Below are positions 59,581 through 62,439 of a stretch of 64,000 bases of DNA, in pieces. This DNA comes from Escherichia coli (GTDB taxonomy: Bacteria > Pseudomonadota > Gammaproteobacteria > Enterobacterales > Enterobacteriaceae): the NCBI GenBank assembly GCA_902500205.1, contig GCA_902500205.1_4868.1; one strand, 5' to 3'. Both the position numbers and the translations under genes were made by a program. Below the pieces are notes generated by a model that did no database searches, was not told the origin of the DNA, and worked only from the letters and a program-made list of their open reading frames with translations. How positions within the stretch are numbered: the first letter of the stretch is position 1; each line of letters opens with the position of its first letter.

Positions 59581-60000
59581 ATGAACAATATCGCGTTTGA
59601 AAAAGGCGTTGGCTTACTTCTGAACAACACCATCGTCGCTGGCACTAATAACGCTAACTGGGAAGCGTTAGCACAGCGTCTCAAAGACAAGCCTGTGAAG
59701 ATTGTGGTGACGAGCGAGTTACCGTTAAACGGCACAATGGCAAACTGTGGTCCAATGTTTGCGGCGTTTAACATCGACTATGATTGCGGCTCCGCTTTCT
59801 TACAAAACGCCGCGTTACGTAGCCGTCTGTACAGCTGGCGTTTGCTGGGTCCGGTAAGTAAAGCCGCAGGTCAAATGGTTAACCAGGGCACACCGATGTC
59901 GGGTGTAGAAGACCAGACTATCGCCGTTGTCGTTTCTCGCGCAACCGGCCAGCTTAACTTTGCAATCTGCTACGCGTATCAGGAGGAAGAGTATGCTTAG
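59581..60000 (+). CDS. Hypothetical protein (139 aa)
   Basis: ORF track; AAGGAG RBS. Confidence 0.55.
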   Translation: MNNIAFEKGVGLLLNNTIVAGTNNANWEALAQRLKDKPVKIVVTSELPLNGTMANCGPMFAAFNIDYDCGSAFLQNAALRSRLYSWRLLGPVSKAAGQMVNQGTPMSGVEDQTIAVVVSRATGQLNFAICYAYQEEEYA

Positions 60001-60853
60001 TATTATTCAGCAGACTCAGGCGGTTGATGATTGGTACCGGCAAGCGAAGATTTACCAATACGGGACACGCGAGCAGCAGCTAGCCAAGTTCTATCGCACA
60101 TTAGGCGACGTCGCTGAAGGTGTGCAGAAGATGGACAACTTGAAAGTGGCGGCGGCCATGGGTCGCTCTCTTTGGGCGTTCGTTGGTCTGTTGCACTTCG
60201 GCAAGCACACGAACGTGGGAGATTTCGTTATTCCACTGGATGCAGCTATAAAAGACCGCACCACGGGAAACACCAAAGAGTTCCGTCTTCATAACCTTTT
60301 TGTTGTTGCCACCGAAGTGGTTGGACTCATATTGCAAGATGAGCACGAGCCCCACAGCTACGTTACCGAGCTGCATAGTTTGGCGCGACAATACCGAATG
60401 TTGGCGCGTATCTGCGGCCTGGAATTCGGCCGTGTAATATACAACGGACATCGTGTGCTAATCAACACGAAAGGTGAAATGAACGGCATCGGGTTGTTTG
60501 TTCCCGCGTCTGATGATTTTACTGGCGATAAATTGCCTGGTTCTAGACAGATGTCTGGCCCAGCCATCTGTCTGATGTTCCAGACTGTCCTGGACAGTTG
60601 TGTCGCTACGCACCTTGCGCCCTATTGCCACCGGCCGTTTAAACGCGACGAGTTGCCGACAATCAATGCTGCACTCGCAACTACGTTAAACGAACTGCTG
60701 GACAAATATGTTCGTGACTCAGTGCGCTGGAATCGTATCCTGTTCGAACGTGTACCTGAAATAACCGCAGCCTACACAGATGGCGGTGTGAATGTGGTGA
60801 TGAATGATGATCTACTTTACTTATTTGAAAGCTTAAAGAGGGATAGTATCTAA
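59993..60853 (+). CDS. Hypothetical protein (about 286 aa)
   Basis: ORF track 59927..60853; start moved to ATG with AGGAGG RBS (MLSIIQQ). Confidence 0.55.
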
Positions 60854-61890
60854 TGAAGCAATACCTTGAAACGATGCAGAATATTCTGGATGAAGGGCAT
60901 GTTAAAGGCGACCGTACTGGAACAGGGACGCTCTCCGTCTTTGGTCGCCAAATGCGTTTTGATTTGCGCAAAGGTTTCCCGCTAGTCACGACTAAGAAAC
61001 TCCACCTGCGTTCTATTATCCATGAACTGCTGTGGTTCCTTAGTGGGGATACCAACACCAAATATCTGGAAGATAACGGCGTTACCATTTGGCGGGAGTG
61101 GCAAGATGAAAATGGGAACCTTGGCCCCCTGTATGGGGAACAGTGGAGACGTTGGAAAGATGTGAAACTGGTGCCTAAGAAAAATGCAGCTTTACTCGAG
61201 AAACTGCAAGATGCTGGATACGTGGATTATGGCGACGCGGACGACGGTTCACAAATGTTCGATGCGCGTGTACTTCTGAAACTACACGACCAAATCTCTA
61301 AGGTGATTGACCAACTGCGTAACGATCCTGACAGTCGCCGTATTATTGTTAGCGCATGGAACGTGGGTGAGTTGGATCAAATGGCGTTAGCTCCGTGTCA
61401 TGCGTTCTTTCAGTTCTACACTCGTGAGCTGTCTATCGACGAGCGTCTTGATTGGTTTGAAAAGAACCTTCCAGATCAATTTAACGATTCCCGCTTTAGT
61501 AATGAAGCTGTTGCTGACGACGCAGTGTTCCACGTTGAGATGGACGCACTTGAAATACCTCGCCGCATTCTTTCATGTCAGCTGTATGCACGTTCCCAAG
61601 ACTTCTTCCTGGGAACACCGTTCAACATCGCGTCTTACGCATTACTCGTACACATGGTAGCTCAGCAAGTTAACATGGTTCCAGGCGATTTCGTTTGGAG
61701 TGGTGGTGACGTACATCTGTACTCCAACCATCTGGAACAGGCTAAATTGCAGCTGACGCGCGAACCTTTACCTTTACCGAAACTGGTCATCAAGCGTAAA
61801 CCGGATTCTATCTTCGATTATAAGTTCGAAGATTTCGAAATCGTCGGGTATCAGTCCCATGAAAAAATATCTGCGCCTGTCGCTATCTAA
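60853..61890 (+). CDS. thyA: Thymidylate synthase (ThyA-type), 345 aa, with two insertions
   Basis: Classic ThyA motifs: [18 protein letters not shown] (catalytic Cys), [25 protein letters not shown], and a C-terminus nearly identical to enterobacterial ThyA ([24 protein letters not shown]...APVAI); stop/start overlap with the upstream gene. Confidence 0.95.
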
Positions 61891-61902
61891 TTAGGAGCGT
61901 TT

Positions 61903-62439
61903 ATGGTTGACAACGTCGTTCCATTCAAACCTAAAGTGGTGGTTGCTACGGACGAACCGCCGTTTATTCCTATCAATGGACAGAAGATCATCGAGTTTCC
62001 AGACGAGCATCGTGGGCAATTGCACGTTCCACAACCGGACGGGACGATGAAAGCTATCGGTTTCCCGATAGCTGAACAAGAATGGTGGACGCTTCTGGCT
62101 ATCCAGATGATGTCGCGTGGTCTGGGTGTGTCTACGGAACCTGTCGTTCGCATTAATACCGACCCGTATATCCACGAACAAGGCAGTTGGATGGAACGAC
62201 GTCGGACAATGGAGATGCAGATTAGCAAAGAAACGCTTTTGCAAATCGCAGAATCCACACCTTTCATCCTGACCTCATCTTTTAACGGGGATATGGATGA
62301 AGACCTCTACATGCACCTTTCAGGCTTAGCAGCTGAACACCGCATTGCAGAAGAAGAGCCTATCTATACCGAAGCGATGATTATCCATCCGACTGGCTTA
62401 GAAGGTGATACCTTTAAACTGATTTGGGTGGAGCTATGA
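61903..62439 (+). CDS. Hypothetical protein (178 aa)
   Basis: ORF track. Confidence 0.55.
   Translation: MVDNVVPFKPKVVVATDEPPFIPINGQKIIEFPDEHRGQLHVPQPDGTMKAIGFPIAEQEWWTLLAIQMMSRGLGVSTEPVVRINTDPYIHEQGSWMERRRTMEMQISKETLLQIAESTPFILTSSFNGDMDEDLYMHLSGLAAEHRIAEEEPIYTEAMIIHPTGLEGDTFKLIWVEL

Follow-up and report, generated by a model that had tools for sequence, protein, structure and literature searches.

What are some 80 additional residues doing in a thymidylate synthase (TS), an enzyme that is among the most conserved and best studied and is a drug target, and where does a gene of this form come from? We address this question for the thyA gene of a 64,000-nucleotide (nt) stretch of DNA deposited as Escherichia coli (assembly GCA_902500205.1), the whole of which is referred to as the window. 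At the DNA level, the window region shares 97.8% identity with Salmonella phage JN03 and 92% with phage SPN3US, and its close matches are all 240-kb Seoulvirus genomes. Seoulvirus (SPN3US-like) sits in the Chimalliviridae, the nucleus-forming jumbo phages, in the current NCBI taxonomy. An earlier note, made from the letters alone, had suggested an enterobacterial host, which agrees with this assignment. We consider it probable, at roughly 60%, that the gene encodes a working synthase of deoxythymidine monophosphate (dTMP) with peripheral structural or docking modules. The gene and its parts are as follows.

60853-61890, + strand: thyA coding sequence, 345 codons and a TAA stop, one intact open reading frame of 345 amino acids (aa).
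60853-61158, + strand: core block N, residues 1-102, equivalent to E. coli ThyA 1-102, holding R21, E58, W80 and Y94.
61159-61287, + strand: insert 1, residues 103-145, a gap between aligned phmmer blocks.
61288-61425, + strand: core block M, residues 146-191, equivalent to E. coli 110-155, holding R162/R163 (R126/R127 in E. coli) and the catalytic Cys182.
61426-61569, + strand: insert 2, residues 192-239, likewise a gap between phmmer blocks.
61570-61887, + strand: core block C, residues 240-345, equivalent to E. coli 159-264, holding R247, S248, D250, N258, H288, Y290 and the C-terminal APVAI.
60836-60842, + strand: Shine-Dalgarno-like AAGAGGG, 10 nt upstream of the thyA ATG, read from the sequence.

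The earlier note had described a thymidylate synthase with about 80 extra residues in two in-frame insertions, one after QWRRW and one between FQFYT and CQLY, neither of them an intron, and this description was upheld throughout. Pfam matched the window protein to PF00303 only (E = 4e-112, 374 bits, cut-off 24.3), in two stretches split at profile position 155, which is where insert 2 lies, and a phmmer search against all PDB sequences returned E. coli ThyA at the top (E ~5e-123) in exactly three aligned blocks. Insert 1 stands in place of E. coli residues 103-109 (net +36 residues) and insert 2 in place of residues 156-158 (net +45), and these gains account for the whole 81-residue excess (345 - 264). 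The start codon and the frame are not mis-called, since E. coli ThyA has the same termini (MKQYLE at the N-terminus, APVAI at the C-terminus); the alignment likewise excludes a frameshift. The GC content of the inserts (46.5-47.3%) is the same as that of the remainder of the gene. An Rfam search of 60700-62000 found no intron and no match to the group I intron family RF00028, the sole match listed at E <= 1 being an unrelated chance one (E = 0.72), and the reading frame is unbroken. Neither insert has the marks of an intein: Pfam gave no Hint/intein domain for the window protein, the inserts comprise 43 and 48 aa compared with at least ~130 residues for an intein, and splice-junction residues are absent. 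As positive controls, the same searches detect the intein in the ThyA of Aeromonas phage PS1 (Pfam) and the intron in the thyA of phage PA02 (Rfam, 69 bits).

All 14 catalytic and ligand-binding residues of E. coli ThyA that were checked (R21, E58, W80, Y94, R126, R127, C146, H147, R166, S167, D169, N177, H207 and Y209) are identical in the window protein by pairwise alignment, and the same residues are kept in all 66 relatives examined; the codon of the catalytic Cys182, equivalent to E. coli C146, lies at 61396-61398. The gene itself is already known and annotated as thymidylate synthase, as in the related phage records (n = 38), and to judge from its sequence it is an ordinary, apparently functional gene of this kind. 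The predicted enzyme would convert deoxyuridine monophosphate (dUMP) and methylene-tetrahydrofolate to dTMP and so supply dTMP for replication of the Seoulvirus jumbo phage. Its catalytic core would be essentially that of E. coli ThyA, with two independently folding modules grafted on. These modules would take no part in the chemistry; as peripheral elements at the dimer edge they may either reinforce the obligate dimer or offer docking surfaces for phage nucleotide-metabolism partners in the cytoplasm. By GFP tagging, phage thymidylate synthase and kinase were found to be cytoplasmic, outside the phage nucleus (PMC9067925; PMC12908238), and a role of the modules in nuclear import is disfavoured on the same grounds. 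As an observation on the core itself, the window reads YARSQD at 61585-61602 (residues 245-250), with Ala and Gln at the positions of E. coli Q165 and C168 (YQRSCD), where SPN3US has YQRSAD and Goslar also has ARSQD.

The inserts were further characterised in an AlphaFold2 model built from an 89-sequence alignment, which superseded an earlier model from 13 close sequences with a poor core (predicted local distance difference test, pLDDT, of 56). Its mean pLDDT was 94.6 and its predicted template-modelling score (pTM) 0.92, and over both inserts the ten-residue block means of pLDDT were 81-97. Insert 1, situated in the surface loop after the QWRxW helix, is predicted to form a strand-helix-strand-strand unit (strand 101-108, helix 112-120, strand 124-130, strand 137-145). 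Insert 2 is predicted as a four-helix module (195-205, 207-212, 217-221 and 223-232) and occupies the tip of a beta-hairpin that runs between FQFY and LSCQLY and whose strands belong to the dimer interface. In a Foldseek search of the PDB, the model aligned to 1TYS (E = 2e-44) with a template-modelling (TM) score of 0.96 when target-normalised and 0.73 when query-normalised; no TS in the PDB scored above this query-normalised value, and the inserts are therefore left uncovered by all of them. Among predicted viral structures, the TS of phage 201phi2-1 matched best (TM 0.92, query-normalised); the window protein shares only 15-28% sequence identity with it in the inserts. In the predicted models, both modules are thus structurally conserved out to this Pseudomonas phage despite low sequence identity. 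According to the known TS fold, the hairpin that bears insert 2 would run from the catalytic Cys to R166, its tip would be the farthest point from the active site of its own subunit, and this tip would adjoin R126/R127, which reach into the active site of the partner subunit. The strand after insert 2, LSCQLYQR, is the sequence of an octapeptide directed against the interface between human TS monomers (PMC8041318). By net charge the inserts are mildly acidic, a value that comes from a noisy extraction.

Known synthases differ from this architecture in several ways. E. coli ThyA (264 aa; PDB 1TYS, 2TSC) resembles the window protein in its fold (TM 0.96), catalytic residues and both termini, but it has no inserts, with a 7-residue loop (103-109) at site 1 and a 3-residue turn (156-158) at site 2. 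The sequences of human TS and T4 Td were checked against PDB 1HW3 and 1TIS. Human TS, a precedent for lineage-specific surface insertions, has 8 additional residues in the loop that insert 1 occupies, a further 7 at the small-domain site and nothing at site 2, all much shorter than those of the window. T4 Td (286 aa), a phage-encoded ThyA and classic target of intron and homing-endonuclease invasion, has gained 8 residues at the small-domain site and 12 close to the C-terminus but none at site 1 or 2, and in the alignment with it and E. coli ThyA the inserts of the window are internal. The synthases of the Lactobacillus casei/Enterococcus type, likewise a precedent, possess a 50-residue small-domain insert, at another site than those of the window. 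The ThyAs of nucleus-forming jumbo phages (201phi2-1 gp350, the phiKZ gp235 type, Goslar, Asesino and CR5) share with the window the same two sites and the anchor motifs, whereas their insert sequences are only 13-50% identical to it. The inserts are not mentioned in the literature searched, and there appears to be no earlier description of the two-insert architecture, of its breadth in large phages, of its predicted fold or of its cassette-like evolution. A large, confidently predicted module at the tip of a dimer-interface hairpin is found in no solved TS, yet it is kept across many jumbo-phage genera despite sequence turnover. Should the modules stabilise the dimer or dock partners, they would offer a handle on cytoplasmic nucleotide supply in nucleus-forming phages and a natural example of tolerated decoration on an essential interface.

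Each insert has recognisable anchors. In insert 1 these are the motif D-x-K/R-x-V-P and the residue G122, which is invariant and directly precedes an aromatic residue; insert 2 begins with T-R/H-E-L/M-S/T-x-D/E-E-R and ends with V/I-P-x-R-x-L-S-C around a hypervariable centre; G122, E197, P236 and R238 are invariant in the 13 closest relatives. We defined a two-insert “long” ThyA as one in which an insert of at least 25 residues, the G-aromatic pair among them, follows QWRxW and another of 35 residues or more separates FQFYT(R/H)E from (V/I)PxRxLSC. The window protein belongs to this group by its alignment with 12 chimallivirus ThyAs, by the table of site lengths and by the superposition on 201phi2-1. 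A tblastn search with insert 2 found ThyA in 84 phage records with the hosts Salmonella, Erwinia, Pseudomonas, Escherichia, Cronobacter and Proteus, all listed matches being jumbo phages except for one weak match to a Rhizobium phage. With insert 1 it yielded 33 records, all Seoulvirus/Machinavirus, although a site-1 insert could nonetheless be aligned in Asesino, phiEaH2, SPAsTU, CR5, Goslar, PA02 (phiKZ-like), 201phi2-1 and Viktualia. Both sites are occupied in Seoulvirus, Machinavirus, Erskinevirus, Derbicusvirus, Goslarvirus, Phikzvirus and Serwervirus, and a third, larger insert lies between IWxEW and LGxVYG in phiKZ-like phages, 201phi2-1, Viktualia and RisingSun. As both sites and their anchor motifs are also present in Pseudomonas phages and in Goslar, the two-insert form of the gene is old within large phages. 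A tblastn search with a virion protein of the window gave 300 matches, consistent with the chimallivirus host range. The inserts had also been considered as a signature of chimalliviruses only, an idea that was then weakened: site-2 inserts also occur in the Rhizobium phages RHph_N46, N28_1 and RHEph12 and in many ThyAs from phage-like contigs of metagenomes, and K64-1 (Alcyoneusvirus), a jumbo phage that is not a chimallivirus, has a Goslar-like insert at site 1 and nothing at site 2. When insert 2 (residues 184-245) was compared by phmmer with 1.84 billion representative proteins, no domain homologous to it turned up outside ThyA. The search returned 8 matches, of which 6 were ThyA (2 of these scrambled database artefacts and 1 a truncated ThyA exon product). 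Derivation of insert 2 from another protein family was therefore rejected, as the only non-ThyA matches were 2 low-complexity repeat proteins (E ~1e-3) regarded as spurious.

Two further insert-bearing ThyAs were seen in public assemblies. A 339/344-aa two-insert ThyA (P0042 and ~100 similar proteins) is very common on contigs of 220-226 kb labelled Shigella, Salmonella or E. coli, which suggests that a jumbo phage related to Goslar is frequently assembled together with enteric isolates; P0042 departs from the consensus at SCFYMMRSND and SGVDVH. A phage-like contig of GCA_040384045.1 (JAWVHH010000314.1, locus L026) encodes a 363-aa ThyA with a +62 insert at site 2, located between 7-deazaguanine genes (PTPS, radical SAM, GTP cyclohydrolase I) and thymidylate kinase, with an intein-bearing RecA/UvsX gene close by.

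Within the genus, the ratio of non-synonymous to synonymous differences per site (pN/pS) of insert 2 was 0.047 (9 Seoulvirus genes; 44 summed synonymous versus 8 non-synonymous differences), a value that indicates purifying selection on the coding sequence. Between genera, the insert centres are only 13-50% identical, compared with 72-79% in the core. Whole inserts are found in new combinations as well. Phage Lh1B is 97.6% identical to the window in the core and 100% in insert 1, but only 35% in insert 2, which is of the CR5 type (73% DNA identity to CR5), the replaced patch being limited to nucleotides 61446-61572. The proteins P0029 and P0031 have a common insert 1 and different inserts 2, and P0028/pSal-SNUABM-04 combines an insert 1 of the window type with a different, longer insert 2. 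Judged by these alignments, the inserts consist of conserved anchors and fast-evolving centres that are exchanged between phage lineages as cassettes. Furthermore, among the thyA genes of the window and 8 other Seoulvirus phages, synonymous differences per site (pS) amounted to 0.04-0.08 in the centre of the gene (insert 1, middle core and insert 2) versus ~0.3 in the outer core blocks. Recombination with more distant alleles seems to affect the conserved core flanks, and the centre with the inserts seems to stay nearly clonal save for swaps of whole cassettes. The high synonymous divergence of the flanks relative to the centre is explained by the patchy mosaicism of the surrounding region; since this suffices, a hidden element behind the low central pS is not needed.

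The main rival to structural or docking modules holds that the inserts are expansions without a function, located where the ThyA surface is permissive and kept merely because they must not disturb folding, and that they drift and recombine freely. It would account for the hypervariable centres with their low identity between genera relative to the core, for the near-continuous site-2 lengths from +4 to +62 and the variable presence of site 1, for the independent reassortment of insert types and for the lack of a homologous domain outside ThyA among the 1.84 billion representatives searched. We nevertheless regard it as unlikely, given the low pN/pS of insert 2, the confident predicted folds and their retention out to 201phi2-1, the conservation of the charged anchors E197/R198 together with P236 and R238 across closer relatives, and the maintenance of modules of ~40-50 residues in at least 7 chimallivirus genera. 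Several observations do weigh against our preferred reading. The chimalliviruses PCH45 and PS1 (Aeromonas) have site 2 without insert 1 and insert 1 of RisingSun is short, so that this insert is dispensable in some relatives at least, and its pN/pS within Seoulvirus was 0.59, with too few differences to judge. The length of site 2 spans +4 to +62 residues, and this wide range and the independent assortment of the two inserts fit weak functional constraint as well as docking. Where the inserts lie with respect to the partner subunit was reasoned from the general TS fold. In phiKZ, knock-down of the synthase gp235 had a weak effect on plaques (PMC12571901), and the enzyme itself is therefore accessory; it is placed under the non-core genome in the knock-down table (PMC12571901), and thymidylate kinase is a member of the chimallivirus core genome. 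Even if the inserts were neutral, the two-insert form would still mark a group of phage ThyAs, with site-2 inserts reaching beyond chimalliviruses. A bolder variant of the docking idea, which we consider distinctly doubtful, is that insert 1 of one subunit meets insert 2 of the other across the dimer and forms a phage-specific surface recruiting nucleotide-metabolism enzymes (e.g. thymidylate kinase, MazG-like pyrophosphatase and ribonucleotide reductase) into a cytoplasmic complex that produces deoxynucleoside triphosphates, the hypervariable centres being partner-specific or conflict-exposed contacts; it would explain the rapid turnover and lateral exchange of the cassette centres. As to the reaction itself, it is hardly credible that the protein is a hydroxymethylase of dUMP or deoxycytidine monophosphate (dCMP) making a modified base instead of dTMP. 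The T4 dCMP hydroxymethylase (gp42) has Asp at the position of N177, for cytosine specificity, and the window protein keeps the Asn as N258. Its other catalytic residues and the C-terminal APVAI are likewise those of E. coli, its core is 76.6% identical to that of a bona fide TS and no base-modification genes adjoin thyA, although phage members of the TS superfamily do include hydroxymethylases (PMC7824862).

Mobile elements have invaded the thyA genes of relatives, which raises the alternative that the inserts are decayed remnants of homing-endonuclease domains or mini-inteins, or that the variability of insert 2 was driven by homing-endonuclease attack and co-conversion beside an intron site. 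The thyA of PA02 (L007:1659-2717) carries a group I intron (RF00028, 69 bits) immediately behind the CQLYQR codon, and that of the Erwinia phage RisingSun (L006:1399-2463) is split at the same codon, with no intron match in its gap in the Rfam search that detected the one of PA02; both gaps encode an I-TevI-like GIY-YIG/NUMOD3 endonuclease. PS1 (NC_070998.1, L021:46-2304) encodes a 752-aa ThyA with a Hint + LAGLIDADG intein exactly at the catalytic Cys in addition to its site-2 insert, and a metagenomic ThyA of 487 aa (P0195) has a site-2 insert and, at site 1, an in-frame HNH/NUMOD-like module of ~180 residues (PF22083, E = 2e-4, below the family cut-off). In the window, the corresponding intron site lies 21-24 nt past the 3' edge of insert 2:

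61593-61594, + strand: homologue of the PA02/RisingSun intron site (after the CQLY-x-R codon), no intron in the window.

Besides this hotspot character of thyA, the patch replaced in Lh1B stops at nt 61572, which is 21 nt upstream of the position corresponding to the intron site and presumably about where an enzyme of the I-TevI type would cut. A mobile-element origin is quite improbable all the same: Pfam gives only PF00303 for the window protein, segments of 43 and 48 aa without splice-junction residues are too short for an intein or endonuclease, and both modules are predicted to be simple, with alpha/beta and helical folds. Lh1B itself is free of an intron, so that co-conversion would require a later, precise loss of the intron, and homologous recombination at the anchors accounts for its swap equally well. 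Endonuclease-driven co-conversion possibly contributes to the exchange of cassettes in general, for which ordinary recombination at the conserved anchors is an equally good explanation. The remaining alternative concerns the core and follows the earlier note, which had read the C-terminus as nearly identical to host ThyA and the gene as sharing a relatively recent ancestry with it; both statements went too far. Over the last 36 residues, identity to E. coli ThyA is 75% (27/36), not above the core average of 76.6% (252 aligned core positions), and a blastn search of 5,426 complete E. coli genomes matched thyA in all of them at ~70% identity in three pieces. Core identity to the ThyAs of Asesino, phiEaH2, SPAsTU, CR5 and Goslar is 72-79% for the window and 69-82% for E. 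coli ThyA, and the phiKZ-type ThyAs are 54-60% identical to all others. In a scan of 185,579 bacterial and archaeal species (one genome per species), the inserts were absent among the best 80 bacterial loci listed, 25 of which were translated (263-277 aa) and the rest of which had match lengths in the same range. In a neighbour-joining tree of 264 core columns including 25 bacterial ThyAs, the ThyAs of Seoulvirus, Machinavirus, Erskinevirus and Derbicusvirus formed one clade (bootstrap 63), sister (bootstrap 45) to Enterobacterales + Aeromonas (bootstrap 66) and not nested inside; Goslar-like and phiKZ-like ThyAs fell outside. With bootstrap values below 35 at the deep nodes, a single origin of all insert-bearing ThyAs is neither supported nor rejected. 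Recent capture from an enterobacterial host with later gain of the inserts in this lineage would fit the core identity of 76.6% and the sister position at bootstrap 45. It is nonetheless very improbable in view of the low DNA identity, the placement of the phage clade outside all sampled Enterobacterales, the presence of the same inserts in chimalliviruses of Pseudomonas, Erwinia, Cronobacter and E. coli, and their absence from the best bacterial loci listed. On the sequence evidence, the core can be called “enterobacterial” in type, but the sampled Enterobacterales are no older than the split, and the close resemblance to E. coli at the protein level results from strong constraint acting on the core of ThyA. 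The phage core may have started from a gammaproteobacterial-type sequence, while nothing points to recent capture; high core identity to a host enzyme thus need not mean recent transfer.

The neighbours of thyA encode hypothetical proteins, the immediate ones without a Pfam match, and in SPN3US a gene for a MazG-like pyrophosphohydrolase is located ~3 kb downstream of thyA. The thyA ATG overlaps the stop codon of the upstream reading frame by 1 nt. This upstream gene (59927-60853, + strand) encodes 308 aa without a Pfam match and is a very divergent allele, with ~50% DNA identity to SPN3US and SPLA3 and 100% to JN03 and Lh1B; its SPLA3 counterpart is annotated as “restriction endonuclease”, for which Pfam shows no domain there. 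Some related thyA records deserve correction or caution. The RefSeq entry of SPN3US (NC_027402.1, L001:6000-7037) calls ThyA from an internal Met (L001:6021), and the E. coli-like N-terminus begins at a GTG that lies 7 codons upstream; where the window has ATG, GTG is the start in several Seoulvirus genomes. In the records of SPFM1, 5-10, 12, 14, 15 and 20 (LR535901, LR535903-LR535908, LR535911-LR535913, LR535917) and in P0193 and P0194, thyA appears in blocks of ~20 aa in reversed order, a pattern that would arise if the record's 60-nt lines were turned round but not complemented. This results in “13-piece” BLAST matches and scrambled database proteins and looks like a deposit or assembly artefact.

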